Source: Amoebophrya sp. A120 (Eukaryota; Protista; Dinoflagellata). From it: a stretch of DNA of 64,000 nt. The stretch covers positions 84,736 through 148,735 of the forward strand of contig CAJINV010000033.1 of assembly GCA_905178155.1 (NCBI GenBank), read 5' to 3'. The translations under genes were made by a program, and so were the position numbers. The notes beneath the pieces are model-generated. The model saw only the letters and a list, made by a program, of their open reading frames with translations. It did no database searches and was not told the DNA's origin. This document shows positions 1,521 to 63,052 of the stretch, one piece after another; position 1 is the stretch's first letter, and each line of letters begins with the position of its first letter.

Positions 1521-4500
1521 ATGGGGGGTTTTTCGCGGCGCAACCGGAAGCAGAGCCAGCAGGCTGGCGGCGAAGTGAGCATGACTTTGTCCCTGCTGCA
1601 AGACCGGATAAAACGGGACTCTCTCGCGTACAAACAGGAGTTTCAAGCGCAAGTACAGCACTTCGAGTCCGTTCTCGAGCTTTTGCTCCTCAACCCGCAG
1701 AAGCCCTCGAAACAGTTCGATGAGCAGGTGATGTTTCTCGCGCACGTATGCCCCTATTATGAATACAAGGACTTCCCGCAGAAAATCATCAAACTGCTGA
1801 AGGAAAAATCCAACTTACTCCACGCCCAAACGCGGAAGGTGCTGGTGCAGGCATTGATTCTGCTGAGGAACCGGAACCAGTACGAGTTGATCGACGCCCT
1901 GCCGCTCCACTTTCAGCTGCTGGCTTTGGACGACAAAAACGTCCGGTCCATGGTGCACACCCACATCGTCCGCGATGTGCTGCGCATGAACGAGAAGAGT
2001 CAAAACATGATCGAGAACAAGAAATTGCAAGGGTTTTTCTTCGCCCAGTTGGATCATGGGAATAATAAAACGCAAAATGGGATGAAGAATGTATCCAATA
2101 CAGGAAATAATAATAACCTCCAAAGTAGCAACAGTTCGACGGTGTCGGTGGGGGACGCAAATTATACCGCAAGTTCAAGTGGCAGCCCTAACACGATCGT
2201 GGCAGCGCGGAAGGCGCTGATCATCCTGATCTCGTTGTACAAGAAAAATATTTGGACCACCGCCTCGGTCGTCAACGCCATCGCGCAGGCGGTTCTCCAC
2301 AACGACATGCACGTGGCCAAGGCGGCCGCGAATTTTCTGTTGGGGAACACGCATTTGGTTGCGGAGGAGGATGGGGAGGACTCGGAGGATGAAAACAAGA
2401 AGGAAATCGGCAATGTCAGCAAGAAAGTATTGGATTCGACGTGAAATTCACTTTGAATATGATTTTTGTTTTCATCTGTCGATCTTTGTATATTTAGATT
2501 TGACTCATCTAGTTCTTATTTCTGCTTCGCGTGATCGGCACACCACATTATATGCCTATACGAAACTTCCGCTTCCCCAGGTCCTTGGTATCAAGCGGTT
2601 TGCGAAATCGGGTCAGAAAAAGAAAAAGATGGAAAAAGCGAAGAAAAAAGCTCTGAAGTCCATGAGCGGGAGCAAAAAAGCGAAATCCGGTCTCGAGAAC
2701 AAGCAAAATTTCGCGGCGATTGACCTGCTCCACGACCCGCAGAAGCTGGCGGAGCAGTTGCTCGTCCGGATCATGCGCGGGAACGAAAACTACGCGTTTC
2801 GGTTGTTGTTGCTGCAGCTGACGAGTAGGTTGATGGGGCGGCACAAGCTGATCATCCCGAATTTCTACCCCTACTTGCAAAAGTATCTGTCTCCGACGCA
2901 GCGCGAGGTCACGACCGTTTTGGCGTGCCTAGCGCAATCCTGCCACACGGAACTGGCTTGTGAGGTGGTCCGGCCCGCGGTGGCGCACGTGTTTTCGACC
3001 TTCGTGAATGAGACCAACGCACCGGAGGTATACAGAATTTCACCGTATGTAACATGTGCTAGCTATAGTAGTATTTGTACTTTTCAGATGGCGTAGCATG
3101 TGGTCCTCGGGTGCTCTAAATCCTAAACCCTACTTAAGTGGCTACTTAGTCTTCGATGCGTATGAAACGATGAGGGAATATGTACTGCCTCCAATAAAAA
3201 GCATTATGCGGTCCTAACGGATGAATCATATCAAAATTTTTTTTGATCTACCAATTTATTTGCGCTTTACTCATCATTCTCTTCCTGCAAAACCAAAATG
3301 AAAATTTCCCAACCCAACAAAAATCTCTAGGTGATCACGGTGGGTATCAACAGTCTGCGCGAGATCGCGTGCCGCGTCCCCCACGCGCTCACCGAGGAGG
3401 AGGTACACGACCTGTGCGGGTTCCGAAAGTACAAGCACAAGGGTATTCCAAGTAAAAACGTCCCTACCCCATAGTTGTCATGCAGATTTGCAGTTACAGA
3501 AAGATTTGCAGTGCGCATCCCCATGAGAGGCATTTCCAGTTGCGTTTTGGACTCTGTAATGCTATAAACAGGATGCGTAGATGGATTTGTGTTGCGGCTG
3601 TACTTGCCAAACTGCACTACAGTACAGAGACGAACTTGTCATGCGTGACTCCCAAGACTTCTCGACTTGTGTTGCGAGACCGCCATCTTGACTCTGGGGT
3701 GGGGACGTTTTTACACAGAATAAAGGGCGTCCGCGTGGGCGTGAAGTCGCTGGTGAACATGTATCGTGAACTGAACCCCGCGTTCCTGCAGAAGCAATTC
3801 CGCGGCAAGGAAGCGGCGGAAGCCTTGGCAAGGGGGGAACTGAAAAACAATGGCGAGGTCACCGCGGAAACGTTGTTTGGCCAGGGGATGGAGTTGCTCG
3901 CTGCGCGGAAACTGCGGAAGGAGGAGAAGAAGAGAGAGAAGGAGGAAAACACCGGAGCTGATTCAGGATCGGAGGAAAATGACTCTGATGCCGCAGAAGT
4001 AGATTCTGATGCTGAACAGAGCATAGAAGACTGGCTCGACGAAGAGGAAGAGGATTCTCAATCAGGGACCGAGGGCGATGACGAGAATGATAGTACGGAA
4101 AACATCAAGCCTACGACGAAGAACAGCCCTCCTGGAGGTAAAAATAATAGCACAGTAGACGTCAAAAAGACGGTCAAGAAAGCTGGTGCATCGAAGGCGT
4201 CTACTTCGGATGTTGACGATGCTTGCAAGTCCAACTCAAAGAAGCAAGAAAGAAGGTCAAAAAGTAGCTCGAAAAAAGAGAGTGAAAAGGATGCAGAATT
4301 GTCAAATTCAGAGGAGGAATCGGGCTTCGAAGATTTAGAGGAGGAGGACTTCAGCGATCTGGAAGAGGAAATCTCAGACTTCGACGAAGTTCCTTCCGGC
4401 TCCGAAGCAGAAGACGAAGATCTTGCACAAGATGGTGCAAATAGCGACAGCGCGAACGACACGAAAAATGATGATAGTACTACTTCCCGAAAGCGACCGA

Positions 4501-10000: not shown

Positions 10001-13000
10001 CCAGCCATTTTATGCTTATGTATGAAATCTGTATAAAAATTATATCAACTACACAGGACCAGCTCACGTTCGAATCTCTCGCCGCCCACGCGTTAGGGGG
10101 AAAGTGGGGCAAGATTGTTTTCTCCTTTTTTCTCCTCGCGGCGGAGTTCGCCATGGTGATCTCCTCGTGTATCGCCATCGCCTCTGCGTTGTCCGGCGCT
10201 TTCCGCAATATCGTGCCCGAGAAGGTTTTGGGGGACAGTGTGTCCCGGGAAACGGCGCTCTTACTCGTCGTGACGCTATTGCTGATTCCGCAGTGCTGGG
10301 TGCGGAAAATCAAATACTTCGTCTACAACAGTTTCGTCGGTGCGTTGACGACGCTGTGGTGCTTGTTCTACGTGTTGGGGTCCAACACCTTCCAACTGAT
10401 TTTCGAAGAAGCGGCGACAACACCTCCAGGTCTGAACTCGGTGGTATCAAAGCCGGAAACTTTGGTGGGACAACTGCCAGGAGGCGTTCTCCTGTCAGAG
10501 ACCGCCTTGATGGCAGGAGCATCTTCTCTGTTAGAAGATTATACACAGGAGCATGGAGCTACTGGAAGTACTTCTAGAGAACAACAAACATCAGTGCTAC
10601 AACAAGCTGCTTCGCCAGTTGTCTTTTCGGCGAACCGAGCGGCTCGTATGCGCGGCGGTGCGGAAGCAGAAGGTCTTAATGAGGACGAAGGTGTTCCAGT
10701 AGTTCTTGGGGACGAGGAGGAACCAGCAAGGCCAGGCACGAGCTCATCACCTGCGGGCGAGTTTGTTCCGGGAGGAACCCTTGCAACAAGTAGAACCGCA
10801 CCTCCTTCGGAAGGTCGTGACCAGGAACAAGGGCAGCGGAATTCTGCGGAAGAACGGATGTCCCCAGGTGGTGGTGGTGGTGGTTCACCATCTCCTGTTG
10901 TTGTTGACCAAGATGTAGTTGCACAGCCGTTTGATACCATGCCAACTTCTCCTCCTCCCTCTCCTCCCTCTCCGCCCCTGCACCACCACACGCGACACCC
11001 ATCAAATCGTGAAGGTAAGAATGATGACTTGAACGCAGCCAGCACGACCCCTCTATTTGATCGTATCGGTCTTCCCGACCAAATGACCAACGCGTTCGCT
11101 CAAGCGGATGAAGATCCACCAACGTCGAGTAGTACTAAAGGCCCAACAAGACAACAACTTCTCCCGAAAAGACCGCGGTTGGACAGCCCGTTAACCGAGG
11201 ACTTTCTTTCTAAGCACGACCAGGCTATTGGGGCCCGCCCGATGGGAACAAGTTTTTTTCAAAACGCCCCGGATGAAGTTGTAGATCCGCGCTGGAGCCA
11301 GGACCCGCTGAAGGGCGGCAAGAACAAGAAAAACTACGCCAACGATCAGGAAACGGGGCGAAGCCAACTCACCGAGTCAACCCGACCACCCGACAGCGCT
11401 ATTCACAGCGGCATCCGCAGTCCGGTGAGTTCGAGCTCGGACGTTTCGCGGATGGGGGGAGCGGACGGGGGGTCAGCCGAGCAGGAGAATTTGCTGGACT
11501 TACTGCTGGAGCGAACTACGACGAATAATGATGTTGGTCGTGAGACAGCCACCGGTTCTGCTGGCCGTCTTGCGGAACCCGACGCCTCCTCCTCGTCCGG
11601 CTTGATGCTGTACCGAACTTGCACGACCGAGGGGGAGGATGGTGCGCGAATCGTTTCTTTGGTGCCAAAATCGCCCAGTGCAGCGGAGGATGAGGACAGC
11701 GAGAAGAGTCCCGAGGTTCTTGTTCCACCTGTGGCTTGTTCAAACACGGATCATCCGGGTGTTGAGGGCTGCGGTGGTGCAGCACTTCAACAAACTGGCG
11801 CAACATTGAACCCCGGATCGCTTGCTCCGGCAGAAGACCTTGATGAACGAACTCGTGCCCCCCACCTCCGGAGGGCAATATCTTCGCCACTTTCATCTGG
11901 TCAACAAAACTGTCCCCCACCCAAGTCGAAACCCCCGTCGCTGAAAAATCGACGACGTCCCTCGCCCCTCGTCACCCGCAACAATGCAGCAGCTGCTGCA
12001 CCTCCTTTCCGCCGCGAGTTGACCCCGCCGGACGAAGCGGATGAAGTGGAGACGAGCCAGTTGTTGGAGAAAAATCCACTGGGACAGCAAGCGCTTGGAA
12101 CAACTATTCCGGGAGCTGCTACTGCTCCTTCGGCCGGCGTTTATCTTGCAGGTCAAGATGCAGTAATTTCGTCGTCCAACAGTAGCTCATCATCTTCACA
12201 ATCGGCTGCTCCAGACGGTAAGAGTCCGGGAGCTGTTGGTGTTGTACTTCTAGAGAACAAGACCAGCGGGGGCACAGGGGGTGCAGGGGATGGCAGAACA
12301 GGTGGTGGTCCAGGGGATCATGGCAGCGGGGGTGTGGTGCATCAACTAAGCGAAAATACAAGTAGCGGAAAAAACACCCCAGCTGCACCATCACCGCTGT
12401 TGCAAAACGGTTCGAAAACTAGTTTAAAGCCGTCAAATGAAATTTCCGGTGCGACATCAACCCCACAACTTCGAAGCGCGCAAACCGCAGGCCCCAGCAC
12501 AGGGAACAAGAGCAATTCCAGCGTCGGGATCATATCGGAACGCAAATTTTTGCAACCAGGCGGAAGTGCTGGCGTGTTTCTTGCGGCCGATAATTCCGAT
12601 AAAAATTCGGGCAGAAGTGGAGGTGCAGACAAAAATGAGATCATTTTCGGAGTACTACCACCAGAACTCGCCTCAGGAATATTAAAACAGGGAGGCACAA
12701 CAGCAAATACCCGTGTTCGAGGAGGAGGCCAACCTCATCCACGACAACCCGGCAACATGATAGTACCTGCTCCTCTCTCGTCGTCCTCCTCGTCGTCCAC
12801 CCCACTTGACATGAACGATCCGTACGACGTCGATATTCAAAACGGATCAACAGCGCCGACCCCAAGAACTTCTACTGCGACTTCCATCAATTGGTATGTG
12901 CCCGAGGATTTTATGTCACTCGTCTCCCTGGCTGGAATGACCCTGTACTCCGCGGAGTATATCCCAGAGAAAAAAGCTGGCAGGGCACATTTGTAATGCA

Positions 13001-14435
13001 AAAATAAATACACAGAAAAAATTGTCATGGGTGGCCCCGTAGCATGCTGCTTCGGATACGCAATACAGATTTTTTTGTGTATTTATTTTTGCATTACCTG
13101 CCCGCTTTTTTCTGTGGGATAGAGTACGTGAACACCATCCTCCCCATCTACGAGGCGCATGAGAAAAAGGACAACTTCCCCCTCATTTTCATCCTCTGCG
13201 CGGTTTGTGTGGCGGGGCTCGCCTGGGCGATCAGCTTCACGTCGTATTTGACGAACCCGTTATCCGAGTCCACCTACTGCTTCGCGGATCTGCCGGAGGG
13301 TCCGCTCCGCACCGCGGTGCAATTGTGCGTCACTGCCGGTTGCTTTCTGTCCATTCCGGTGCTGTTCTTCGTGATCCCGCACTTCTACGAGAAACAACTC
13401 TTCCACCAGTTGCTCAGCATGACCGGGAAGTCCGAGGAGGAAGTCAGTCGGCGAAAATGGTGCAAAAACGGGGTGTATCAAATGTAAAAATGTCTGGGTC
13501 TGGAAGATTGCAACTTGTCATGCTAAATCTGCAGCATGCAAAAATCTGTGTTGCATGATTACCAAAAGTCGCCAAATTTTGACCAAGTGGGGAGGTAGTT
13601 TCTCATGCAGAATAGGCATTAGAAAGGTCGCGCAGAATCTGTCATGCTAGGTCCGGCATTCCAGACCTCATGGGTCATGGAAAAGCAGCATCACAAATCG
13701 CGCATTCTTCCAGACCCAGACATTTTTGCAATTCATAGGGTGCGCACGCTGATCCTGTGCTCCATCGTCCTCGTCGCGATCCTGCTTGGCGAGCAGAACG
13801 TCCGTATCAAATGCAAAAGTGTCTGAGCAGTCTGGAAGATTGCGAGATTTGTCATGCTTGTCTGGCATGACCAAAAAGTTTGTGATGCGTGTCCAAGAAG
13901 AGACCCTTTTGCCTGTCATGCAAAAACGCAGTTTGTCATGCTCATGCGACAAACTGCGTTTTTGCATGACAGGGCATTCACTATTCCCAACGCAGCATTA
14001 CAAGTTTCCAGACCCAGACATTTTTACAGTTGATAGTCCGCGTTTTGACGTCCTTCGTCGGTGGCTTTGCCTGCGCGCCCTTGGCGTTCATATTTCCGGT
14101 ATTTATAAATGAAAGGACAAAAAATGCTGGAGTGGTGCCAAGAGTAGCTGCAAAAAGGCAGAAATAAACAACTGTATAAGCAAAAATACGGACACCAAGC
14201 ATCGATCGAAAATGGGGTGAAAAATGGGGTGAAAAATGATTGGGTGTTTCCTCAAAGAAAGTGAAAGATTTGAATTTGAACAATACTCATATAATTCCAG
14301 GTAATCATCTTCAACCAGCTGGGGGAGCCTACGCCCGTGCTCAAAGTGCTCAACTACGGCATTGGGGTTTTTGGAATTCTGGCCTGTATCAGCTGCACCT
14401 ACTTGGCGTTTACCGACCCAGGGGGCGGACATTGA
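7031..14435 (+). CDS. AAAP/Aa_trans family (Avt3/Avt4-like) amino-acid transporter with long low-complexity N-terminus and internal insertion; exons about 7031-9847, 10057-12959, 13127-13475, 13743-13804, 14041-14098, 14301-14435
   Basis: PGGFRR motif, KSMIGTGIFTL, YSAEYVNTILPIY and SFVGGFACAPLAFIFP appear after splicing two GT-AG introns and three introners. Confidence 0.85.
12960..13121. mobile_element. Introner family C
   Basis: TIR tatcccagagaaaaaagc / gcttttttctgtgggata; DR gagta. Confidence 0.92.
13476..13737. mobile_element. Introner family A (262-bp subfamily)
   Basis: TIR tatcaaatgtaaaaatgtctgggtctggaag / cttccagacccagacatttttgcaattcata; DR gggtg. Confidence 0.92.
13805..14035. mobile_element. 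Introner family A
   Basis: family A TIR; DR gtccg; removal joins QNVR-VLTSFVGG. Confidence 0.9.
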
Positions 14436-21990: not shown

Positions 21991-22040
<50 letters not shown>

Positions 22041-30819: not shown

Positions 30820-30995
30820 AGAGCTCTCGTTGATGACCGTTGGACGACCACTTCTTTGCAAGCAGATCTTCCCGAGGGTGCATAAGCATCTTCTTGAAAA
30901 ATATACCGACACCGCCGACGTGATGGAATCTGTATTCAGTTGTACTCCTTTTTTACTACCTCCGACCACATTACGTATGTTCTCTTTCTTTCGTG

Positions 30996-31053
30996 AAGTA
31001 CTTACATCACTCGTGCTTTCTTTCGGAAAGTACTTACATCACTCGTGCTTTCT
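30996..31053 (+). repeat. Two-copy direct repeat aagtacttacatcactcgtgctttct
   Basis: 26-nt unit repeated with 32-nt period downstream of a stop codon. Confidence 0.85.
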
Positions 31054-49700: not shown

Positions 49701-52700
49701 CTTCCAGGTGTTGCCTATTCTGCATGAAAGGGACACGCCGTTGGGTCGTCCGCCATCGTGATAGGATCGCCGTGTCTGATCATTCGACCCCCTGTATGCT
49801 TTTTAGCGCGCAACCGGTCACAGAAGTAAGTCTTAGAGCAAGTTTGTAAGACTAACCCATCAAGGCAATACTGGAGCTCCACCGTGCTCGCGGGCTTGGA
49901 TGGTAAGGCAGGTCAGCCACACATAGCGCCCACTGGCTGTAGCCATGCGTAAGCAATCGATAGCAGTTTTGCAGGTGCAGCCGGGTGGTAGTTAGGAAGT
50001 GGGCCGGGTCCCCACGACCTAGGGGCATCGGCAGAGGCTAAATGTGTTCTAGCGCCCAGGTATTGGCAGAGGCTAAATCTGTTCTAACGCCAACCCGCCA
50101 GGAGTTAAATGGTACTACTACTACTACTGCATGACAGAAAAATGGTGCTCTTGGGTAACGTGCATGACTACAGATTCGAGAGTCATGCCAGACAAGCATG
50201 ACAAACATGCATTCTCCCAGACCCAGACATTTTTGCAGTTGATAGCGCACCTGGTTTAACTACGGCGTCGGCATGGCAAACCCCATCGCAAGTATTTTCC
50301 GCAACAACCGGGAGCTGTGCGAGAAGGTCCCCGTGGCTCTGATCTACGACTTCGCTTTCGCGCTGCAGGCCCGGTCCCGCGGCTTCTTGCCGCACCAGCT
50401 GGCGTTTTTCCACTCGATCCTGGTGGTGGGGGACCGAAAAATCAACCGAAACGCGGATATTCTAGCGGAAATCCTGTCGAAGCCAAGGTTTGATAAGGTT
50501 CTCCACTGCTTGTTCGACTCCGACGGGCGGAAGAAACGCCGGAGCATGCTGCGGAAGTTTGCGAGTTTGGAGGAATTGTCGAAGCCCGAGCCGTATGAAT
50601 TGCAAAAGTATCGTACTCGTATAAACGCATTACAAATTTCCTCAGCATGTTGATAAATAAAATTTGTAAAAATGCGGATATACCTAAGGAAAAAGATTTG
50701 TAATGCATGGGCGCAATTACTACGAGTACGAGACTTTTGCACAGGATAAGCCGTTCCGAAAGTGGAACGGCGACGACGCCGAGCTTGTCTACTCCGTGAA
50801 GTCGGTCGAGCTTCTCAGCTTGATTTGCCTCGGCCAGGGTGACGGCGGACGGTCCAGCTTCGTGGTGAACATGATTTCGCCAGACTCACTGACGGTCCAG
50901 TACATGGAAGTCCATGAGACCGTCTACATTACCACCGAGCCGGTCGGCGGCCAGCCCTCGATCTCCAAGGCCGCACAGGAGATGGCCCGGGTGTTACAGG
51001 GCGCGATGCTGGACCTGATGTCCAACTGCTACTACGAGACGGAAGTAAGGGACGACCGGTTCTGGAATTCGGATATTCACTTGTATCTACTCGAACTGCT
51101 CACCACGGAAATTGACAAAATCTTCAACGTATCAACTGCAACTATGTCTGGGGCTGGGAGATTGCGAGACTTGTCATGCTAGTCTGGCATGACTCTGAGC
51201 TCTCTATTACGTGGCCGCGAAGAGCTCCGCTTGCCCGTCATGCAAAAACGCAGTCTCTCGTGCGGAGTACGCAACTCAGAACCACAGCAAAACTTGTCAT
51301 GCTGGGCAGCGCATTACAGTGCTTTCACTGTACAACTCCCTTCCCTGCAACACAGGTTTCCAGACCCAGACATGTTTGCATTTGATACAACGTGAGTGCA
51401 AAGAACCGCCCGGTCACGGACAGCGAGGAGATTTTCGTCCACAGGGTGCTCCGCGCGCTAAACAACTACGTGCAGTGGGCGATGAGCATCACGGAGAAGC
51501 ACGGCACCACGCACAAGGGCATCCTGGATTTGTGCTATCCTGAGTAAAAACGTCCCCACACCAGAGTTGTCATGCAGATTTGCAATGACAGGAACATTTG
51601 TAATGCGCATCGCCAGGAGAGGCATTTTTAGTCGTGTTTTGGAATTTGTAATGTTGTAAACAGGATGAGCAGATGGATTTCTGATGCAGCTGGCCATGCG
51701 AACCTGCACTAAACTACGGACTGCAACTTGTGACGCGTGACCCTCAAAAGTTCTAGGTTTGTGTTGCAAAATCCCCATCTTGACTAGGTTTGTGTTGCAA
51801 AATCCGCCGCATTTTTTTAAAAAATTGCCGGTTGCAGCGGCATCTAACTCGAAGTTTGACAAAGCACTTTATAAGAAAAAGCACTTCGTAAAGAAAAGCA
51901 CTTCGTAAAGAAAAGCACTTCGTAAAACAAAACGTAGTCATGTAAAGCAGCACGGCAGATACTTCAACATACTAGCAGTGTGCGGGGGGGGCCAATGTGG
52001 TCCCCCCCACGCGCTGCGCCTATAAATAAAACACGCCAGGGAATTTTCTTTTTTTTCCAGCAGAGGCTGGCTGTGGGACTTGGGGCAATGCCGGGGATTA
52101 GAAATGCAAATATGATGGCAGTGCGTTTCTACTCTTAAGTATCCTGCTTCAAACATGTTTTATTTTTTTTTGGCCTTTTGTCACGCTCTTTGTCATTGTC
52201 TTTGGATTAGTACCGCGTCACACAATTGCACAAGTATTTAGAAAACATCATGGAAAATGGCACGCGGAGTCGGAAACATTGAAAACGACGCCGAGCTCGA
52301 CGGAGCCGCATGAAGGGCGGCGGGGGGTTGGAAGATCTGCGCGCGTTGTCGGGGCCACAGAAAGAGGAAGACCAGGCCGCGGGGCATACGCACGCGGGGG
52401 AGGAGGGGGAAAACGGAGGCGAAACGAGAACAAGGGGCGCAGTACGAAAACGGATCGAGAACCAACATGCTGGAGCAGGGGACAAGAGCGGAAAAGTAAG
52501 AAATCGGGAAAAAAAAGCCGTATACCTGCGCAATTCCTTACATGTGAATAACATGGTGGGCGGGAGGGGTTCTTCACATTTTTGGAAACGCCCACCGCCC
52601 CGACTAGAATAACTGAATGATGAAAAAATTGGGGGCAGGGCAAAAAAAAAATCCCCATCTTGACTCTGGTGTGGGGATGTTTTTACTCAGGATTTGTGCA

Positions 52701-55700
52701 GGGGCCGGATGAGCGGGCTGCTGAAGCAGATTCAGAACCGGGAGTTGCCCATCAGCAAGGACGTGTTTCTGATCGAGAACAAGCGGCTAATCGCCTGGAT
52801 CGAGGGTTCCGACGCGAAAGACCAACTTCGCATTCCGTCCGGGGTCATCACCGGCACGGCGAACAAGGGCCAGCAGGGCAACAGGAAGTCCTCCAGCTCC
52901 TCCTCCTCCGACAGTCATCATGGCGACCTGAAGCACAGTCGCGGGCGGTACACGCGGTTTCTGTCGCAGTTGAAGCACTCGCCACTGGTGAAGCACGAAC
53001 TGCAGCGGGAATCGGACCTCTTGATCGCGAAGATGATTTCCATCGACCAGTACACCGATCCGACCAACGCGCAGTTTCAGTCGGCGAAAAAGCTGTCCAT
53101 GGCCACGGGGCAGCCGATCGGGTGCGACTACCGCCGGATCAAGATCAAACTCGAAGATTTGGTCGACCGCATGGTGCGCCACTGCATGCAGATCATGGGC
53201 GAGATTAGTGGCATGCCGACGATCTTGCGAGTGTACGAGCTGCTAAATTTGATCATCGACTACTGTGATATTAGTTCGGGCAGTACTACTACGAACGCCA
53301 TGTACACCCTGGTCGAGTGTCAAACCATTTTCACGAAAGCCGGCGTGGTGCGGCTGATCATCGAGACCTTGATGCTCAAGCCGGACGCACACATCACGCA
53401 GAAAGCGCTTTCCTTATGGCGTTCTCAAACGTTACATTCTCGACTTGTACATGAAATCTGTCATGCAAGAATGGCAAGAGTGAAAGGGAAAAGATCGGCC
53501 CTTTTGCATTACAGGTTTGGAGCAGATTATAATGGTATCTAGCGCGTCGAGAAGTTGTCATGCGGAGAAGGCTTGATCGTGTGCAGAGCGATAGTATTTT
53601 TGCATGACAAATCATGTAACAGTTGAGAATGTAACATTTGAGAACGCCATACTCCTTGGGGATTTCCATGCTGCGGCCGAACAACGAAACCGTGCAGCAG
53701 GCCTTCACCTATCACAGGAAAAAAGTGTATACAGTTACACATTTGTTGGAGTTTCTGCATCACAGAGTGGCTCGTCATGGCAAAGAAAACCTGTAATGTG
53801 CAGACTATAAGGGAAAACACGAATGAAATGAGATAGGCAAGCATGTCCTGCATGACAGAGGTTGTCTGTCTTGCTTGTCTCCCATTGGAGTGTGTAACTG
53901 TAACACTTTTTTCCCACGATATCACCGAGGTGTTCTACAGTACGGACGATTCCGGACTCTGGTCGGTCTTCTGCACGATTTACGACCAAATTCTGAACAA
54001 CTTGAAACCCGTCCGGACGCTGAAGAAGGTGCAGCGGAAGTACGAGCAGAAGCGGGCCCAGGTTCGCAAGGAGCGGCCGGACTTGGCCGCGCAATTGGAC
54101 GAGGTGTCTGACTCGGCCTTGACCAGCGAAGAGCAAGAGTATTTGCAAATCTGGTCCGATATCCTACCGAAAAAAGCATAATGAAACCATGTTGATTTCT
54201 TGATGTGAAGATGCAAATCGAAGTCGACTCATGCTGAAAATTTACCACGTGCAGCATGCCATGTGTGTGCGCTCCCGCCTCATGGCAAACCCGCTTCCTG
54301 TGTCGTGCAACTACGATCTATATTTTCGCATGACTTTCACATCAAGTCGAAGTTGTCTTCTGCGCCGTTTTTCGGTGTGATCTCTGAGCAGGTCGAGAGC
54401 TGCTGCAAGTGCATTGAGTTCCAGCAGAAACTGTCCGAGGGGCACAACCTAACCATGCAGAACTACACCTACAACCAGCACGACAACTCGGCTATTACAA
54501 TGAAAAATGCCCCCACCCCCGAACTTGGGAGCATTTGTATTGCAAACCTTTCCAAATGAAACATTCGCCCTCTTGCATCTATCAGCATCACAGATCTCCA
54601 ATCGTGAATAGCAAAAATTTGTATTGCAAAATACCCCAGCAAGAGCGGCGCTTGTCGTGCAAGCGATGCGATAGATACACACCTAGGCTCTGCATCAGAA
54701 AGATTCATACTCCTTTCATGCATGACAAAAAGTTTTCATTTGGAAACTTCGCATCACAAATTTTTGCAATTTCAGGGTTGGGGGGCACTTTTCGCTGTAA
54801 TATCGGCGTCAGTGAATTTTGTGGAAAAAACTGTGGACTTATTTGTGAAATTGACCAAGTCCCGGGAAATTGTGGACGACCTAGACGAAGAAGAGCTAAT
54901 ATGCATTGCGAACACCAATTATATCCCTGGATGTCTGGAAGGTTGCAACTTGTCATGCTAAGTCTTGGATGATCATGCAAAAGTCTGTGTTGCATGATTA
55001 CCAAAAGTTGTTCACTTTTGACCAGGTTAAGAGGCAGTTTCTCATGCAGGATAGGCCTGATAGAGATCTCACTCTCACAGCATTGGTCATGTTAGGCGCT
55101 GGCGCATTCCAGCCCTCATGGGTCATGGAAAACTGGCATCATAACTCGTGCATTCTTCCAAACTACCCGCCAGACATATTTTTTGCATTTGATAGCTAGC
55201 GCTCGCCTGCAACAGCCTGGATCTGATCATCGAAGTCTTGCAAGGGCCGTGCGCGAGGAACCAGGTGTACGTGTCTGTGTCCGGGCTGGTGGAGCAAATC
55301 AACAAAATTCTCCGCTGGCCCTTCGCGAACATCGTCGATTTGAACGACGTATGATCCTGTGCAAAAGTATCGTACTCGTACTGTAATTGCAGTAGTTATG
55401 CAGGACAAATCTCTTACTCTTTCTCGAGGCAAATCGGCATTACATAATGCTGAGGTAATTTCATATTCATTTGTATTGCAATTTACGCTAGTCGCGCGAT
55501 ACTCTTGTATCAATGCATACGACGGCGATCAGTACCCGGACAGCGTGCGCGAGCTGAAGTACAAGTGCTGTCTCTGTTTGAACTGTCTGCTGGAACTTCG
55601 TCCGGACACAGAAGTTATCCACTGGAAGAACCATGTCTGGGTCTGGAAACTCGTACTGCTGGGTTTGGAATATTAGTGTATCATGCTCTCTAGTAAAAAT

Positions 55701-58700
55701 GCACAGCCAAGCATGTTGAGAAATATCATCTGCGCTGCTTTTTAGTGTTGCGTTTTCCGCGTGACGGACTGCGTTTTTGCGTGGCAGTACATACATAGAT
55801 ACAAAAGGGTCTGCTCGTCTTCTTGGACACGCATTGTCACAAAGAACAACTCTTCAGTCATGGCAAAAGACAAGCCTGAAGACCACAAACCTTCGTATCC
55901 TTCCAGACCCGGTGGACATGATTGCGATGCATAGAAGTGCACCGAAATATCATCCACCGCGTGGACATTTCCACCTTTCAAAACCGAGTCATTTTTGCGC
56001 ACCGCTATTTCTTGTCCGAGGTGCTGAACTGCGGACCCACAATATCCTGAAGAAAAACGTCCCCACACCAGCGTCAAGATGGAAAATCTGCTAGACAAAT
56101 CAGCCAGCTTTGGTTGTTTCGCATGACAGGTCTATCCTCGTAGTGTAGTCGTGTTTAGGTAGTTTACCAGCGTCACAGATCTAGCATATCGTGCTGGTTA
56201 TAGCATCATAAATTCCAAAACACGACTAGGGAATGCGAGTGCCTCTCATGGCGCTCCGCATGAGAAACTTTTTTGGCGTGCAGATTTGCATCACAACTCC
56301 GGGGTGGCGGTGGGGACGTTTTATCTCAGAATACACAAATCTAGAGGCCTTCGACGAGCCGGACACTAAACTGAAGCTCCCCAATATCGCAAGAAATGCG
56401 TGTTACAGTTACACATTGTGTTGCAGGCAGAGCGAGACAGACAAGCTCTGTCATGCCGGGTATGCATAGGAGCGTTGTTTCATACGCGTTTTCATTCCCG
56501 TAGGAGTCACAACAAATGTGTAACTGTAACACTTTTTTCGTGTGATACCCAATAAGTCGCCACAGTTGGTGGTGGAAAACTTTACGAATGATTTAGGCAT
56601 TGCAGGAGCAACAGTATCTTCTGATATTAGTAGCAATTGCTAGAAGTGCTCGTGGTCCTCACAAAAATACGAGAAATAGAACTTGCATGCAATCATGTTG
56701 TTGACGTTTGGAAAATGGTCATGTAGGAATATAATTGCAGTTGCTACTATGAATTAAGTAGGTGCATGAAAAATACTTTTGCAGAGGATATGGTCAGTTG
56801 CAAGACTATTTCGGCTATGGATTGTAAAAATGTCTGGGTCTGGAAGATTGTCAGATTTGTCATGCAGCTTTTCCATGACCCACGAGGTCTGGAATGCAGG
56901 GCCTAGCATGACAGATTCTATGCGATCTCTCTCATGCCTACCCTGCATGAGAAACTCCCTCCCGACTTGGTCAAAACTGGGCCACTTTTGGTAATCATGC
57001 AACACTGATTTTTGCATGCTTCAGATTTAGCATGACAAGTTGCATTCTTCCAGACCCACACACTTTCACATTTGATATCGGCGAGGCCTGGGAGCTGATC
57101 ATGGTGATGAACCAATTGTCTGAAGCGGACGAGTATGCACTGCAAAAATGTCGGGGTCTGGAAGGATGGAACTTGTAATGCTTATTCTGGATCGTGCAAA
57201 AATCTGTGTTGCATGAATGCCAAAAGTTGTCCACTTTTGACCAAGTTGAGAGGAAGTCTCTCATGCAGGATAGGCATGATAGGGATCTCACAGGATCTGT
57301 CATGCTAGGTCCTGCATTCCAGACGATGCAGCTCATGGAAAATATGCATGACAAGTCTCACAATCTTCCAGACCCAGACATTTTCGCATTTGATAACGAG
57401 GACTTCAAAAAGGCCGCAAGACCAAACTTCGCGCTGGCCGAGAAGCAGTTTGGCCCACTGGACTTCGCCAACGACAGCGAGCGGCAAACCGCGGAAAACG
57501 CCCGGACGTACGTATCGCGAGGGAAAATCCTCCCTTCCCATATCAAGATGGAAATCTGTGATGCAGATTTTTGGTCACAATGCTATAAGGGCAATAAAGT
57601 TGCGGACTGTAGTGCTGGGTGGTGTGGGAAAGCCTTGCATATTCAGCATGACAGGTGGCAGCTGGAATTGGGACACAGCATGACAAATTAACTGCAAGCG
57701 AAGCCACAGCTGCGGCTGTTGGCCTTCTAGCAATACAAGTCGATTTGTGTTGTACTCAAATACAGCACGATAAATTCGTTTTCGATGTTGGGAGCAGGGC
57801 GGATTTTTCTTCTTGATAGTGCGCGAAGAAGTTTGTGTTGGCGCACGAGTTTTTCTCGCGGTGGATTAAATCGATTGAAATCATGGTGGACGGAAACATT
57901 TTTGACGTGTGGTTCTATGCATTTTTGCAAAAGTGCAATATAGTATCCGATACTCGGTGTATAAAATAAAGTTGCGGTCGTGCATGTAGTGATAAGTCGA
58001 ACTTCATCGTCCCACCTGAAGATCTAGAAGCATTGCATTTTTTTCTTGAAATTTTTTTGCACGCTATTCCTTTTTATTATAGTTCTCCGATACTTTAACT
58101 TTTGCAATGCATATACTCCGCATGCCAGTGATTTGCGATTTTGTGTTGGGCAGTGCGAAAAGGGACATTGTGAACAAAATCAACTTCTCGTCGCCAGAAG
58201 AAAAAGCGGCCGAGTTCGTGGAAATGAGCGAAGCGATCTTCGCACAGGTACTTATTCCACAAATACTCCATACTTTCTAGAAGCACTACTACTTAAACGA
58301 CGAGGCAACACTATTTCATTTATCTTGCCACCAGCACGAAAATCTGACCAATGGTGTTTATTCATGCGCTAGTACAACGAACTCCTACTTCAACTACGTA
58401 GAAGCAAAAATGCTCGCACGTGATGAATTATTTTTTTAAAATAGCGCTGCAAAAGAAGAAGAACAACGTAAGTACTATCTCTCATCTACCTCTACACAGA
58501 CGGAGCACACTCGTGCGCTTTCGAAGTGGGAGTGGCCGATGGCGTTGTTGGTTCCAGGGCCGGCGAAGCGGCCGTTCAACTTTTTTCTGAAGAACGATTC
58601 GCAGAACTTGATGCGAATATCGGAGTACACGCTCTACATCGCAGTAGTGTTAAATTTGATCCTGGGAAACAACATGTACCTTGCTGACGTGAACGATGTG

Positions 58701-61700
58701 CAGGGAGATTTGCACCACCCCATCTACCCCATCCTCCACGCCGACGCCTATTGGTCCGTGATGGCAATCGCTTGGTTCTACCAGGTGCTCTATCACATGC
58801 AAATATGTTGTCTGGCTCTGGGAGGTGGTCCTCTGGGCAAAGCGGCTTACTTTTGATGTAGCGCATGAACGCACTCTTACAAGTTTTAGTTTATTTTTCG
58901 GTCACCTCGTCATGGAGAATTCATTCGCATGCAGCAAGCAAAGAAGTTGTTTGTTACCTCGTGGTCCCAGCACGACAAAAAAACTGGTCATTCCTATTCA
59001 TGCAACAGGATTACTAAAGAAGATTTTGGGGTTAAAATTTAGTACATTGATTCCGCAAGATCACACATGACATCTATCAGCATCCAGACCCACCAGACAT
59101 GTTTGCAATGTATATTCGAATGCTGATTACCAGCTTTATTTCCATCTGCCTCTACTCCCCTCTGGACCTGCGCAAATTTGAGGAAGAAACGAAAGTCGGC
59201 AAAAACGCGAGCTTTTTTGAGTACGTGAAGTCGACCAGGCCACTCGATTATCCACTGCAATAGAACAAATATGGTCTTCATCAAGTTGTCTGGAAAATGA
59301 CAACTGAGCTTGTCTTTGTCATGGTAAATGTGAACCGTGCATCGAAGTAAATCTGTGTTGCGTCAGCGGCAAATGCTACCCAATTTTCCTCGCCAAGCAA
59401 AGGGCGAACTTTCATCAATATGGAAAAATGGGTGTTTTCAAGCTCCGTTACGCAATCTTTTGTGACGCAGTTGTAGCTGCTTCCTCTGGTGTTTTTTTAC
59501 AACCTTTCTATCTTCGTCAACTTCACGAGAAGATTCGATTGATAAATGACTAATTCCAGAACAGCACCATCCAAGTTTCAATGCATATCGAAACCCTGTT
59601 GGCGGTGCTCACTCTGATCGCCGCGGTATACTGCTTTTCCATTCTCTACAAGATGCACTGGCTATCCTACAGAAAAAAGCGGTCAGGGCATATTTGCGAC
59701 GAAAAAATAAGTTAAGACAGAGAAATCAAATCACTCTGTTTAAATTCATCTGTGCTGGGCGCTCCGCGTGCTGTTTAAATTACAGCATACAAAGGACATG
59801 TTGCAAGAGGGATTGGTTCTTTTGCGTCTTTATTTTTGCATTACATACAAGTACCTGCTTTTTTTTCCGTGTGACACTGGCTGGCCTCCGTGATTGCGGT
59901 TTTCTTTCTGTGCGGGTTCTGGGACGACATTTGGCAGAAGCCGGAGGGGCACCGCCGAAACCACCGGTGTCCAAACAACTACTGGGCGCATCTGATTCGG
60001 ACGGTCGCCTATGCACCGCACATATGTCTGGGTCTGGAAAGGACAAGAAGTGAACTTCTCATGCGCATTCCACAACACACACAAATCTCTCATGCATAGG
60101 CAGCAAAAGTTAAAGTTGCCCACTTTCTGTCAGGAAATTGGGGGATTGTCATGCGGATTAGGAATTGTAGAATCTTCTCGATACCTGTGAAGATGCTAGG
60201 GCCTCCATGCCCGACCTTCTGTGTCATCCAAAAACAGCATGACAAAAATCTGCACCCTTCCAGACCGAGACATATTTGCATTTGATATCGCCATCGCCGG
60301 GGAAATATGCATTGCAAAAGTATCGTACTAGTATAGATTGCATCACAAATTTTTTCAAGAAGAGAAATGGAATTTGTAATGCTGATTTAGCTAAAAAGGG
60401 ATATTTGTCATGCATGATCGCAATTACTACGAGTACGATACTTTTGCACAGGATAGGAAAGAAGACCAATCTGGCGCCGCGTCGGACTGTCCATCATTTG
60501 TTGGCTGGGCATCTTTATGAATTGCAACAAAAGTACCGTAGTTTAAGTATCTTAATTGCAGCGCTGCCTGGAATTGGAAACTCAAATTTTTCATCAGGCA
60601 GCTTACAACTACGTAGTAATCTATTCTATTGAAATCAAAGTACTTACTCTTAGTGCGGTACTTGTGTAAAAATGCATAATCTTTGATGCGTGGTATTTCT
60701 TTTCCTTTCTGCTCCTGGACACGATGTTTCAGTACCCCATGCTGGAAAACGGTATCGAAGCGGAAAAAAAGCTCACCGCACACGACCCCGAGGACCTCGA
60801 CTGGTGGCCTTGCATGACAAGAAAACAGGTTACTACTTCTTGCCACGTTCAGCATTACAAGTTCCAATGCATACAAACCTGGCTTCTATCGAAGTGGATG
60901 AACAAGTTTGTGATGCGCGACTCTGCTTATTGATGTCGTTCTCGTTTGTAGATCCACAACATTCCACCAGGTTTGTACAACTACTCCAACGCCAACGTCG
61001 TGCGCGGAAAAGAAATTCGAATTGCATAACCTTGTTGAAAGCGGTGATGATACCGATAAAATCGCTGGGGCTGACCTTTCTACTTGGAATGATCATCATG
61101 TACACTTACGCGTTTGTGGGATTTTACTACTTCCGCCCGGATTTCTATCGCACGAAATACTTGCGGTCCCAGTCTCAACTTGTTGTAACAAGAACAACTT
61201 CGATAATTGTCGATTTTTTTTGTCCTCGAAGACGCATTAAATTTGTCTCCATTGAACTTCCCTTCACTGCTAAAATGGGCGGTGTTGCGTCGTTCAAGAT
61301 GCCTGGCTCTCAATGCAATCCAGTGCAGACAATTTACCTTCAGGAAACTTAGACAGTTCGTTAGCAGTTCCTGGCTCGCCTTGGCAGCTATTACAGTGCC
61401 GAAGAAGCTTGCTCCACATTGTCTTCCTGATGCGCCATGTCGAGCATGGCAGAATCTGTTATGCTGGACATGGCGGAAGAAAGCCAAGCATAGGTGGCTT
61501 TCGTGCGTTTTTTCTTTTGCTTTTGATGCATCAGAGTTTTTACTTTATATGAATGTGAATCGGTATGTAGCTGAAATTCCAATCTTCAAAAGGCCATCTA
61601 CTGAGACTGAGACATTTTTTTTTTCTTGCGATATCCCTGAGGGCGCCTGCACAAATATCGCGGATTGCACGGTGACGACGATTTATCAGGTAATATAGCA

Positions 61701-63052
61701 TCTTCATCTTGTCTAGAAATGTTTTTCTAGTTGCTCTCCAAAAACCGGTTACAAATATGAAAATTCGGAAACAAACTGCAGAAAGATGATGCTACATATG
61801 GGTGGATCGAATGTTGTCTTCACCGCACCATCAAGAGGAAGAGGTACAACAAGGAGGCAGCGTGATCATGATCGATTCTGTGTTGTAGTAATAAATCGAA
61901 CGCCTTCAACTTCAACATAACATCTTCGACCAGGGCATGCGTTCCGACATCGGCTCCGCCCTGCACGGGGTTTCGCCTTCGGTTCCGAATTGGTACGAAC
62001 GAGTGGGCTACGACCTGTCCTACTTCATCATCATCACCACCGTGCTGATGAACGTGATTTTCGGTATCATTTTGGACACCTTCGGGTCCCTCCGGGACGA
62101 AACCCAACAGCGGGAGGAGTACATGAAAAATGTCTCCTTCATCTCCTGCCTGGACCGGTCGGAAATCGAGAAGGCAGCGAGCGTGTTGGAGAATCCAGAG
62201 ATCCGATATCCAGAAAAAAACACCCATCCGCATCCATTTTTTGCATGCCAAACACTGGACCTTATGCATGTTCTGCATGACAAACTGGAACTGGATGGGG
62301 ATGGGTGTTTTTTCCTGGATATCCGATCCGGGTTCAAGTACGTGGAGGAGCAAAAGCAAAACAAGTGGAACTATGCACGGCAATAAACATGTGGGCTGGG
62401 CCAGCATCTGGAAACAAGTTCGATACTTGTACAGCTATCTTCACCCTCTTTTGTTACACAAGAACACACTTTATTCACATTCGCATGCGGACTGCGTGTA
62501 ATGCGAGAGCGTTCTGGTGGAATAAACATAACGTTGTCATGTTTATTATTTGGCTGCATTTGATGGAAGTGTTTGCATCGATCATCCGCATCATGATTTT
62601 GGCATCGCAACTTCCTACACCCTGACCCAGATCTTCGATATTTGCATTTGATAGGAACTACCTGAACTACATGTTCTATCTTTTCCGGAAAGAAAAGGAG
62701 AACTACTCCGGTCCCGAGTATCCTTTGTAAATAAGTATCGCACTAGTATCGACTAAATTTCTGTTGCAGATAGATATGCGTGCCAAAGTTTTTTCTTAAG
62801 GTAAAGGTATTAAACCAAGAGCATGACAAGAAAGAACTCAAAGGTTTTTCATGCAGACCAAGAATCTTGTATGTGAATGCGATTTAGACGACACGACTAC
62901 TAGCGCGATAGTAGTTTTGCAAGGTCGATATCGAGTCCTACGTGGCAAACCTGATGAAGGAGGGCGACAGCTCCTGGCTTCCCATAGGAAAATGCCGGCT
63001 TGTCGACGCCGCAACGGCAAAAATCGAGGAGGCGCACCAGCATAAGAAGTGA
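37751..63052 (+). CDS. Inositol 1,4,5-trisphosphate receptor-like Ca2+ release channel (IP3R/RyR superfamily), split by ~40 introners and several GT-AG introns
   Basis: LYMGDVILL..DIRDCLFKV, YGDTIQLFHIKSGKYLTV, FRHLGSGRYL, EGHNLTMQNY, QGPCARNQ, YDLSYFIIITTVLMNVIFGIILDTFGSLRDE and YSGPESYVA occur in IP3R order; stop at 63050-63052. Confidence 0.92.
38491..38739. mobile_element. Introner, singleton
   Basis: tatgtccggcttag / ctgagccgggtata; flanks tttcc/ttccg. Confidence 0.8.
39798..40008. mobile_element. Introner family G-like
   Basis: tatcgcaagaaaaaaa / tttttttcctggata; DR tcggc. Confidence 0.85.
40431..40783. mobile_element. Introner family A-like, degenerate
   Basis: tatcaatcgcaa / ttgcagtgcata; DR decayed; element+5 nt removal is in frame. 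Confidence 0.7.
40886..41147. mobile_element. Introner family A (262-bp subfamily)
   Basis: close copy of 13476-13737; DR gaccg/gacca. Confidence 0.92.
41978..42220. mobile_element. Introner family E
   Basis: family E TIR; DR gagta. Confidence 0.9.
42282..42424. mobile_element. Introner family D
   Basis: tatgcattgcaaaaacatcttcgcgctag as at 18390; DR gccgc/gtcgc. Confidence 0.82.
43441..43660. mobile_element. Introner family F
   Basis: tatggcgttctcaa / ttgaaaacgccata; DR aagct. Confidence 0.9.
43713..43974. mobile_element. Introner family A
   Basis: family A TIR; DR gggcc. Confidence 0.92.
44746..44919. mobile_element. Introner family D, degenerate
   Basis: tatgg...ccata ends; DR cgctc/ctctc. 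Confidence 0.75.
44958..45262. mobile_element. Introner family A-like, degenerate
   Basis: tacccattgcaaatgtg / catatttgcaatgcata; DR attgc/gatgc; joins EQVL-RQITL. Confidence 0.7.
45330..45732. mobile_element. Introner family H
   Basis: tatcaaaatgaaaaatccccccacccc / ggggaggggggatttttcactctcgata; DR cggtc. Confidence 0.88.
46279..46920. mobile_element. Introner family A, enlarged (642 bp); duplicated at 49603-50244
   Basis: family A TIR; DR gcgca. Confidence 0.9.
47270..47424. mobile_element. Introner family D; duplicated at 50594-50748
   Basis: tatgaattgcaaaagtatcgtactcgta TIR; DR agccg. Confidence 0.9.
47806..48063. mobile_element. Introner family A; duplicated at 51130-51387
   Basis: family A TIR; DR caacg. 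Confidence 0.9.
48981..49080. other. Assembly gap (100 N)
   Basis: run of n. Confidence 1.
49081..52304 (+). repeat. Copy 2 of the 3224-bp duplication
   Basis: matches 45757-48980; continues correctly into downstream IP3R exons. Confidence 0.95.
51536..52694. mobile_element. Introner family B, 1159 bp, carrying a nested ~840-bp insert (partial copy starts at 48212)
   Basis: tatcctgagtaaaaacgtccccacaccagag / ctctggtgtggggatgtttttactcaggatt; DR tgtgc; joins LDLC-RGRMS. Confidence 0.88.
51861..51925 (+). repeat. 17-bp tandem repeat aagaaaagcacttcgta, about 4 copies (also at 48537-48601)
   Basis: seen directly inside the nested insert. Confidence 0.9.
53415..53651. mobile_element. Introner family F (inverted relative to 43441)
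   Basis: long TIR tatggcgttctcaaacgttacattctc; DR ttcct/ctcct. Confidence 0.92.
53710..53921. mobile_element. Introner family G
   Basis: gaaaaaagtgt.tacagttacaca TIR; DR tcacc. Confidence 0.9.
54160..54382. mobile_element. Introner, singleton
   Basis: tatcctaccgaaaaa / tttttcggtgtgatc; DR tccga/tctga. Confidence 0.78.
54493..54802. mobile_element. Introner family H
   Basis: tattacaatgaaaaatgcccccacccc TIR; DR tcggc. Confidence 0.9.
54900..55194. mobile_element. Introner family A (diverged member of the 262-bp subfamily)
   Basis: internal similarity to 13476/40886; DR gctaa/gctag. Confidence 0.85.
55350..55519. mobile_element. Introner family D
   Basis: family D TIR; DR cgacg. Confidence 0.85.
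55616..55933. mobile_element. Introner family A
   Basis: gtctgggtctggaa / ttccagaccc; DR gaagt. Confidence 0.85.
56043..56333. mobile_element. Introner family B (inverted)
   Basis: family B TIR; DR cacaa. Confidence 0.88.
56385..56547. mobile_element. Introner family G
   Basis: gtgttacagttacaca TIR; DR cccaa. Confidence 0.9.
56594..56790. mobile_element. Introner family D, degenerate
   Basis: taggcattgca / ttttgcagaggata; flanks tgatt/tggtc. Confidence 0.65.
56816..57077. mobile_element. Introner family A (262-bp subfamily, inverted)
   Basis: reverse complement resembles 40886-41147; DR tcggc. Confidence 0.92.
57134..57395. mobile_element. Introner family A (262-bp subfamily)
   Basis: family A TIR; DR acgag. 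Confidence 0.92.
57513..57818. mobile_element. Introner family H-like
   Basis: tatcgcgagggaaaatcc / ggatttttcttcttgata; DR gtacg/gtgcg. Confidence 0.8.
57916..58113. mobile_element. Introner family D-like
   Basis: tatgcatttttgcaaaagt / acttttgcaatgcata; flanks ggttc/tactc; joins VWF-RMP. Confidence 0.8.
58791..59114. mobile_element. Introner family A, DR decayed
   Basis: tatcacatgcaaatatgt / acatgtttgcaatgtata; element+5 nt removal is in frame. Confidence 0.78.
59249..59587. mobile_element. Degenerate introner
   Basis: tatccactgcaa / ttcaatgcata; DR tcgat/tcgaa. Confidence 0.75.
59663..59876. mobile_element. Introner family C, diverged
   Basis: tatcctacagaaaaaagcgg TIR; DR ctggc. Confidence 0.82.
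60010..60287. mobile_element. Introner family A
   Basis: family A TIR; DR tcgcc. Confidence 0.9.
60306..60455. mobile_element. Introner family D
   Basis: tgcaaaagtatcgtact / agtacgatacttttgca; DR ggaaa. Confidence 0.92.
60516..60678. mobile_element. Introner family D, degenerate
   Basis: tatgaattgc / aatgcata; DR atctt. Confidence 0.82.
60753..61028. mobile_element. Degenerate introner
   Basis: tatcg...gcata ends; flanks aacgg/acctt; in-frame join LEN-VLKAV. Confidence 0.72.
61146..61633. mobile_element. Introner, singleton, DR decayed
   Basis: tatcgcacgaaa / tttcttgcgata; in-frame join PDF-EGAC. Confidence 0.75.
62207..62321. mobile_element. Introner, singleton, 115 bp and stop-free in frame
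   Basis: tatccagaaaaaaacacccatcc / ggatgggtgttttttcctggata; DR tccga. Confidence 0.92.
62372..62653. mobile_element. Introner family A-like
   Basis: tatgcacggcaa / ttgcatttgata; DR ggaac; joins KWN-YLNY. Confidence 0.85.
62719..62930. mobile_element. Introner family D, degenerate
   Basis: tatcc...cgata ends; DR ccgag/tcgag; joins YSGPE-SYVA. Confidence 0.85.

Follow-up and report, generated by a model that had tools for sequence, protein, structure and literature searches.

Introners in a stretch of the Amoebophrya sp. A120 genome (contig CAJINV010000033.1, positions 84,736 to 148,735; the window, 64,000 nucleotides (nt)) appear to leave transcripts in a fixed register, with exactly five flanking bases. 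They are read here as non-autonomous cut-and-paste DNA transposons, cut from the RNA one base before their TAT start and four bases after their ATA end (-1/+4), likely by a relaxed major spliceosome; the probability of this reading is put at roughly 0.55. It is somewhat more likely than not that N-UAU...AUA-NNNN constitutes a second, genome-wide splicing code in A120, the 1 + 4 register of which equals the 5-bp target duplication of the transposons, such that any element with these ends, wherever and whichever way round it was inserted, would be a perfect intron. Of the spliceosomal donor the cutter would retain the +2 U alone, and it would place the 3' cut by distance without an AG, whether it is a U1-less ruler spliceosome or an unknown ribonuclease-ligase.

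A relaxed scan followed by hand curation identified 60 distinct elements of 115-1159 bp in the window (Table 1). They occur in eight of nine genes, 40 of them in a gene resembling the IP3 receptor (IP3R-like). An earlier description of this DNA, made without database searches (the sequence-only reading), had counted about 58 inserts in seven of eight genes and about 40 in the IP3R-like gene; the observation stands, whilst the other totals are replaced by the recount. A strict detector requiring TAT..ATA ends, a perfect 5-nt flanking repeat and at least 14 of 24 arm matches returned 33 pairs in the window against 0-1 per shuffle in ten Markov shuffles. Three chance pairs from the relaxed scan were discarded and one boundary was shifted. 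Hand placement, guided by TAT/ATA and the reading frame, accounts for about 16 boundaries, so that end conservation in these elements is partly by construction. The segment 45757-48980, with three whole elements and one partial, duplicates 49081-52304 and was counted once.

TAT opens 58 of the 60 elements and ATA closes 56, as had been said of almost all of them, and the motif of TAT, seven nucleotides and at least three A is present in 53 left and 51 right arms. The flanking direct repeat matches at 5/5 positions in 36 elements, 4/5 in 13, 3/5 in three, 2/5 in seven and 0/5 in one; the 5-nt repeat ascribed to the elements is thus perfect in 36/60 and imperfect in the remaining 24. Clustering, which covers all elements except three added later, yielded eight multi-copy families (38 elements) and singletons, matching the earlier estimate of at least eight families. 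Sliding through the repeat produces GT-AG or GC-AG ends in none of the 36 perfect-repeat elements, in keeping with the two cases tried previously; the old element at 27951 has a formal GC-AG reading. The longest ATG-started frame is 136 amino acids (aa), within a nested insert, and elsewhere frames reach at most 86 aa. Terminal inverted repeats (TIRs), a target duplication of fixed length and a lack of coding capacity, the hallmarks of miniature inverted-repeat transposable elements (MITEs), are all present. The upper length of 1159 bp reported before is correct, but the element concerned consists of a 279-bp family member with an insert nested inside it. Rfam gave no match in the window, and the family A arm none among viral contigs.

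Removal from transcripts was followed in contigs of four runs from one sample (X1-X4), aligned to 57400-63150 at 98% likeness; they are presumed to be RNA, and the library is not on record. These RNA-type contigs skip all 13 elements of the region, each with exactly five extra bases, and so cover 13 of the 60 elements, in one gene and one sample. The exons of this gene are represented by contigs, whereas raw reads of runs X11 and X12 do not reach them. Both GT-AG introns of the region are skipped in the same contigs; as remarked earlier, ordinary introns coexist with the elements. One X1 joint spans two elements around a 13-nt exon (60292-60304; checked by length), and since this exon is retained the adjacent elements must be removed separately. 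The joined form is the deeper one in X1 (24.6-37.3 versus 2.65), with low-depth unspliced pieces present in X1-X4, including over a GT-AG intron. The DNA-like run X7, by contrast, keeps the elements without differences at about 80-fold depth (e.g. contig 57734-60100). The proposal of the sequence-only reading that the elements are removed at the RNA level is therefore supported: retention is not the main form in these transcripts, nor is use of nearby GT-AG sites seen in them.

Differences between the two repeat copies make it possible to tell from the joined sequence which copy supplied each base. Three joints are unambiguous, 58789/59119 (X1, X3), 60751/61033 (X1, X4) and 61144/61638 (X1, X4), and each retains four bases of the upstream copy and one of the downstream copy. 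The pinned cuts lie one base before TAT and four bases after ATA, the intron being N-TAT...ATA-NNNN, and the other ten skipped elements are compatible with this register. Keeping four nucleotides of the upstream repeat is the only value that fits all 11 single-element joints: three give it exactly, one bounds it from above (59249 excludes five) and two from below (57513 and 57916 exclude fewer than three). Agreement of three exact joints among six registers has a chance of about 1/36, and is therefore good but thin evidence. The pinned ends are CT..CG, GT..CT and CT..CC. Applied to all 60 elements, the rule gives no GT-AG intron and no U2-type GT/GC-AG ends, all four NT dinucleotides at the 5' end and 15 different dinucleotides at the 3' end, in agreement with the non-GT-AG ends first proposed. 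In Table S4 of PMC7789003, all nine predominant non-canonical motifs of A120 are NT-NN and those of A25 are TT-NN; the A120 motifs support the register, though aligner bias may contribute. The text of that paper finds no clear signature, and the legends of its Figures 3 and S23 give the splice position relative to the hairpin as variable or unknown. The openly available literature on Amoebophrya (subscription papers being outside the scope) yielded no prior statement of a fixed -1/+4 register. Its match to the 5-bp duplication may thus be an addition made here; the figures of PMC7789003 may show more.

Once each element plus 5 nt and the GT-AG introns are removed, stop-free open reading frames (ORFs) result for SDA1, the transporter-like gene, genes 4-7 and the IP3R-like gene; the ORF of gene 8 was not rebuilt by element removal. 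Spliced SDA1 (984 aa) is identical to the annotated Amoebophrya sp. A120 protein, its exon 1 matches, at 100% identity, a protein carrying that organism's name, and the A25 orthologue reads KHKGVRV across the element site. Spliced gene 7 (220 aa) is identical to annotated A120 protein P0050. The A120 annotation was built with RNA data of the same organism and is therefore not independent of the RNA runs used here. The exons of the IP3R-like gene, which also has six GT-AG introns, contain Pfam domains PF08709 and PF02815, and its 3025-aa ORF ends ...GPESYV... without a stop. A stop appears in 39 of 40 cases when any single element is kept, and in 40 of 40 when an element is taken out without one repeat copy. 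The motifs said to be rebuilt by removal of element plus 5 nt, KHKG-V in SDA1 and GPE-SYV in the IP3R-like protein, are indeed restored.

Evidence on insertion comes from a wider sample, a pattern scan of about 150 loci (620 kb), those listed being from JACKZZ01 contigs, which carry the same families with copies up to about 95% identical. Of 334 TIR pairs selected regardless of whether a repeat was present, 245 have a repeat of exactly 5 bp, three have one of 4 bp and none has one of 6 bp, and target bases are unbiased. A codon model trained on the window (49/49 correct there) inferred the strand of 166 of 221 loci elements. On this basis family A lies in genes both ways (38 plus, 29 minus), and targets are not enriched at the rule positions (AG 15/166, G 50/166). 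Two longer pairs were set aside: one of 6.2 kb in L067 spans many ordinary elements and pairs by chance, and one of 1031 bp in L062 also contains element ends.

Constraint on the arms is concentrated at their tips. In the 24 old elements of the window, arm positions 1-3 are 96% matched and positions 16-24 only 43%. The outer T of the sense 5' arm has changed once and its 3' partner, the outer A, 12 times (p = 0.003), with no 5'/3' bias at positions 2-3; these counts cover 220 of 295 oriented elements plus the window's 60, and the later 29717 boundary adds one change at position 2. Among the canonical donors listed, 10 of 12 begin GTA, four of these GTAT. The pattern suggests a signal made up of terminal sequence and spacing, to which pairing contributes. 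Drift of the intronic repeat copy to pyrimidines is weak (14 purine-to-pyrimidine changes versus seven in reverse, before two boundary corrections) and is not claimed. Arm positions 4-10 vary between both arms and between close copies, are 63% matched even in young elements, and show the same few variants recurring in different families.

These data can be assembled as follows. An integrase-like DDE transposase encoded elsewhere would insert the elements at any site and in either orientation, duplicating 5 bp. Removal would take the intron N-UAU...AUA-NNNN, a register shown at three junctions and compatible at ten; because 1 + 4 = 5 flanking bases leave, one duplication copy is cancelled and the exon restored for any target. 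NUAU would mimic the host donor GUA(U/C), leaving +1 free but preserving +2 U, whilst arm pairing would draw the two ends close and the 3' cut would be measured from AUA, not read from AG. Either orientation works because both arms carry the same motif. A relaxed spliceosome is favoured because +2 U is constrained, NUAU resembles host donors, the U2-U6 machinery is present with U1 undetected, and Fritillaria offers a precedent. According to PMC7789003, A120 keeps U2, U4, U5, U6 and nearly all spliceosomal proteins, its U1 small nuclear RNA (snRNA) being undetected.

Several observations weigh against this reading. Exact junctions number only three, from one sample and one gene. Spliceosomes normally use a terminal G-G pair in their second step, and the pinned ends C..G, G..U and C..C lack one; the rule moreover yields 15 different 3' dinucleotides. 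The structure-guided removal proposed by the sequence-only reading is upheld only in part, most arms being predicted to pair. The pinned element 60753, however, has about two expected arm pairs and almost no predicted terminal stem. There is also no sense-strand bias of G-U over A-C (68 versus 79 in the window, 134 versus 141 in the loci), and RNA-level selection on the arm stem is therefore not seen. No lariat, branch point or circle was seen in the contigs, and no back-joint among 14 listed joints, although contigs cannot show their absence. As regards mobilisation, the description as non-autonomous DNA transposons agrees with the anatomy (TIRs, the exact 5-bp repeat, no target bias), but no transposase was found: the window holds no autonomous partner with the same termini, and Pfam searches of 80 of 150 long ORFs from the 620 kb of loci revealed host genes only, with no transposase or integrase. 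Farhat et al. likewise report no transposase in A120 and reject general mobilisation by transposase (PMC7789003).

The strongest competitor retains the elements and the register but dispenses with the spliceosome. A protein endonuclease would bind the UAU/AUA stem end, cutting 1 nt ahead of it and 4 nt beyond it, after which the exons would be sealed by an RNA ligase; a scheme of this kind has been put forward for the nonconventional introns of euglenozoans. Its case lies in the free terminal bases and the symmetric signal: any 3' dinucleotide is used, both orientations serve and most arms are predicted to pair. In Euglena a paired triplet lies at fixed spacing (5'-N3CDG..CH'GN5-6; PMC12501133), nonconventional introns leave circles (PMC11282704), and RNase III plus a ligase has been proposed (PMC12621601). 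However, +2 U is more constrained than its pairing partner, which a symmetric duplex cutter would not need; NUAU resembles the host's own donors; elements with weak stems splice at the same register; and G-U bias is lacking. This account is tentative, with something like one chance in three.

A second alternative concerns mobilisation only, splicing remaining as in the transposon-spliceosome reading: the elements might have spread through RNA, by reverse splicing or by a retrotransposon integrase acting on a cDNA copy. The failure to see a transposase in A120 would fit, as would the 3-6 bp duplications given by long terminal repeat (LTR) integrases and an A120 TIR family with Copia/Gypsy-like ORFs (PMC12130899), which also counts in favour of the transposon reading. 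Reverse splicing, however, gives neither a fresh 5-bp duplication per site nor both orientations, and a spliced intron would carry 1 + 4 old flanking bases which new copies do not inherit; this kind of spread is improbable. Precise DNA excision in the expressing stage is more doubtful still: although TA-type termini with TIRs recall ciliate internal eliminated sequences, and the stage of run X7 is not known, the elements persist in the X7 contigs, the joined repeat combines four upstream bases with one downstream base, and the 5' T is constrained in a strand-asymmetric way, which points to RNA. Least credible of all are reverse-transcriptase template switches across hairpins at direct repeats, real transcripts keeping the elements or being processed otherwise: the setting is the classic one, the data are cDNA-type contigs from a single sample of unrecorded library and unspliced pieces exist, but joints also occur at 0/5 or 2/5 repeats, in one register and in frame, retention would almost always stop the IP3R-like ORF, and the joined form is deeper, with unspliced pieces also over a GT-AG intron.

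Table 1. Elements and related features of the window, with the basis on which each was placed.
Feature	Position	Strand	Basis or remark
Family B element in SDA1, repeat AAGGG/AAGGG	3444..3722	+	strict detector; spliced protein = A120 SDA1
Family C element, transporter-like gene (putative label)	12960..13121	+	strict detector
Family A element	13476..13737	+	strict detector
Family A element	13805..14035	+	strict detector
Decayed element, gene 4, repeat 4/5	16599..16987	+	hand-set
Element, singleton in window	17051..17358	+	strict detector
Family A element	17448..17699	+	strict detector
Family A element, orientation opposite to 17448	17943..18195	+	strict detector
Family D element, repeat 4/5	18390..18582	+	relaxed scan
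Family C element, gene 5	22586..22756	+	strict detector
Old element, repeat 2/5	23134..23359	+	hand-set; frame restored by removing element + 5
Old element, gene 6	27548..27768	+	hand-set
Old element, gene 6, formally readable GC-AG	27951..28153	+	hand-set
Element with ATT end, gene 6	28326..28618	+	relaxed scan
Decayed family A element, TGT start, gene 7	29717..30013	+	spliced protein = annotated P0050
Family D element, gene 7	30453..30610	+	strict detector
Family A element, gene 8	33844..34112	+	relaxed scan
Family E element	35247..35453	+	strict detector
Family B element	35492..35790	+	strict detector
Family B element	36477..36770	+	strict detector
IP3 receptor-like host gene, 40 elements, 6 GT-AG introns	37751..63052	+	Pfam PF08709, PF02815; ORF 3025 aa
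Element, repeat 3/5	38491..38739	+	relaxed scan, ORF
Element	39798..40008	+	relaxed scan, ORF
Old element, repeat 2/5	40431..40783	+	hand-set, ORF
Family A element, repeat 4/5	40886..41147	+	relaxed scan, ORF
Family E element	41978..42220	+	strict detector, ORF
Family D element	42282..42424	+	relaxed scan, ORF
Family F element	43441..43660	+	strict detector, ORF
Family A element, reverse orientation to 13476	43713..43974	+	strict detector, ORF
Family D element	44746..44919	+	relaxed scan, ORF
Old element, repeat 2/5	44952..45262	+	hand-set, ORF
Family G element	45330..45732	+	strict detector, ORF
Identical copy of 49081-52304	45757..48980	.	likely assembly overlap; duplicates 46279-46920, 47270-47424, 47806-48063, partial at 48212
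Family A element, 642 bp, internal insert	49603..50244	+	strict detector, ORF
Family D element	50594..50748	+	strict detector, ORF
Family A element	51130..51387	+	strict detector, ORF
1159-bp element: 279-bp family B copy + nested 862-bp insert; ATT end	51536..52694	+	relaxed scan
Family F element, reverse to 43441	53415..53651	+	relaxed scan, ORF
Family H element	53710..53921	+	strict detector, ORF
Element with ATC end	54160..54382	+	hand-set, ORF
Element	54493..54802	+	strict detector, ORF
Old family A element	54900..55194	+	hand-set, ORF
Family D element, reverse to 60306	55350..55519	+	strict detector, ORF
Decayed family A element	55616..55933	+	relaxed scan, ORF
Family B element	56043..56333	+	strict detector, ORF
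Family H element	56385..56547	+	strict detector, ORF
Old element, TAG start	56594..56790	+	hand-set, ORF
Family A element, reverse	56816..57077	+	strict detector, ORF
Family A element	57134..57395	+	strict detector, ORF
Family G element	57513..57818	+	skipped in RNA-type contig (311 nt); 3-5 nt of upstream repeat kept
Element, repeat 2/5	57916..58113	+	skipped (203 nt); 3-5 nt kept
Element, repeat 2/5	58791..59114	+	pinned intron 58790-59118, CT..CG (X1, X3)
Element	59249..59587	+	skipped (344 nt); at most 4 nt of upstream repeat kept
Family C element, ACA end	59663..59876	+	skipped (219 nt)
Family A element, then 13-nt micro-exon	60010..60287	+	skipped
Family D element	60306..60455	+	skipped
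Element	60516..60678	+	skipped (168 nt)
Old element, repeat 2/5, weak predicted stem	60753..61028	+	pinned intron 60752-61032, GT..CT (X1, X4)
Element, repeat 0/5	61146..61633	+	pinned intron 61145-61637, CT..CC (X1, X4)
Shortest element, 115 bp	62207..62321	+	skipped (120 nt; X1, X3, X4)
Element	62372..62653	+	skipped (287 nt; X1, X3, X4)
Element within GPE-SYV	62719..62930	+	skipped (217 nt; X1, X4)

Some elements house further insertions. The 862-bp insert in element 51536-52694 (51768-52665) is flanked by an 18-bp repeat that begins AAAA and has an A-rich 3' end, features that suggest a non-LTR retroposon lodged inside an introner; it has no Rfam match. RNA reads from X12, hundreds in number and belonging to a related sequence, align at 51772-52494, and a family A element at L069:7024-7995 harbours a related insert (79% over 98 nt) with a 19-bp repeat and an A tail. 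The insert of about 380 bp in 49603-50244, with TAC repeats at its end, is possibly another nested retroposon. Within element 61146-61633, the segment 61251-61422 is matched by X2-X4 contigs from other loci (loose ends), a further nested repeat. The flanks of element 23134 (23129-23364) are reverse complements, CGAAG/CTTCG, without a direct repeat, and its stem reaches into the exon.

All nine genes lie on the + strand, in agreement with the unidirectional clusters reported for Amoebophrya A120; the labels DAD1-like, transporter-like and J-domain/zinc-finger are those which the genes are presumed to merit. The 3224-bp exact duplicate across a 100-N gap (45757-52304) is likely a scaffolding overlap and would break the IP3R-like gene model. 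In gene 8 what looks like a C2H2 motif is interrupted by an intervening sequence (34275-34500), possibly an old non-canonical intron of another type. It lacks TAT/ATA ends, and an AG acceptor is missing from the expected frame; instead it carries short inverted ends, GATTAG/CTAATC, and a GGTG repeat. A hybrid intron in gene 7 (29951-30017; canonical donor plus element 3' end) was discarded, as P0050 fits the full decayed element from 29717.

The -1/+4 register is likely a splicing code. PMC7789003 leaves the cut position undefined, and a fixed register makes it testable how two thirds of A120 introns are removed, since it specifies the position of a branch point or circle junction, the bases to mutate and the features by which an snRNA or protein would have to recognise the intron. 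It would also explain how the genome copes with tens of thousands of insertions, removal being exact whatever the target or the orientation.

The system itself is known: the elements are the already described introners of Amoebophrya A120, given the identity of the window proteins to those of A120 and the description by Farhat et al. of introners with TAT + 7 variable nt + at least 3 A inverted repeats and 3-5-nt direct repeats (PMC7789003), a motif which fits here. The earlier statement that introners are described in Amoebophrya was thus sound. Host, TIR motif, direct repeat, RNA-supported non-GT-AG introns and repeated families all agree, and inverted plus direct repeats, a length of about 240-260 nt, mixture with GT-AG introns and many families are shared with that account (PMC7789003). 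The same source differs in giving a repeat of 3-5 nt and a variable or unknown cut position, where a fixed 5 bp and cuts pinned at -1/+4 are found here. Introners of the Micromonas/Aureococcus type are also TIR transposon-derived introns with flanking direct repeats, but they use canonical splice motifs (PMC7789003), in contrast to the 0/60 GT-AG and targets without AG/G enrichment seen here. IS3EU/GingerRoot, an integrase-related DDE superfamily, shares TA..TA termini; its duplication is usually 6 bp (PMC10045372), whereas here it is 5 bp (245 versus 0 of the 334 pairs), and the elements were therefore not filed there.

Among introns with unusual ends, those of Fritillaria borealis likewise bear TIRs and target-site duplications and are removed by an evolved U2 spliceosome; they prefer AG-AC and AG-AT ends (PMC11282704), whilst in the window +2 T is the sole fixed base and any dinucleotide may stand at the 3' end. 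Euglena nonconventional introns are also non-GT-AG, with paired terminal triplets at fixed cut spacing and direct repeats, lie alongside GT-AG introns and are likely of MITE origin (PMC12501133, PMC11282704). Their code, N3-CDG..CH'G-N5-6 with an exonic purine, is not that of the window, where the ends are N1-TAT..ATA-N4, so that the geometry alone is alike. Circles have been demonstrated for the Euglena introns (PMC11282704), and the two lineages are unrelated. A fixed code in Amoebophrya, if true, would parallel the Euglena code in an unrelated lineage.

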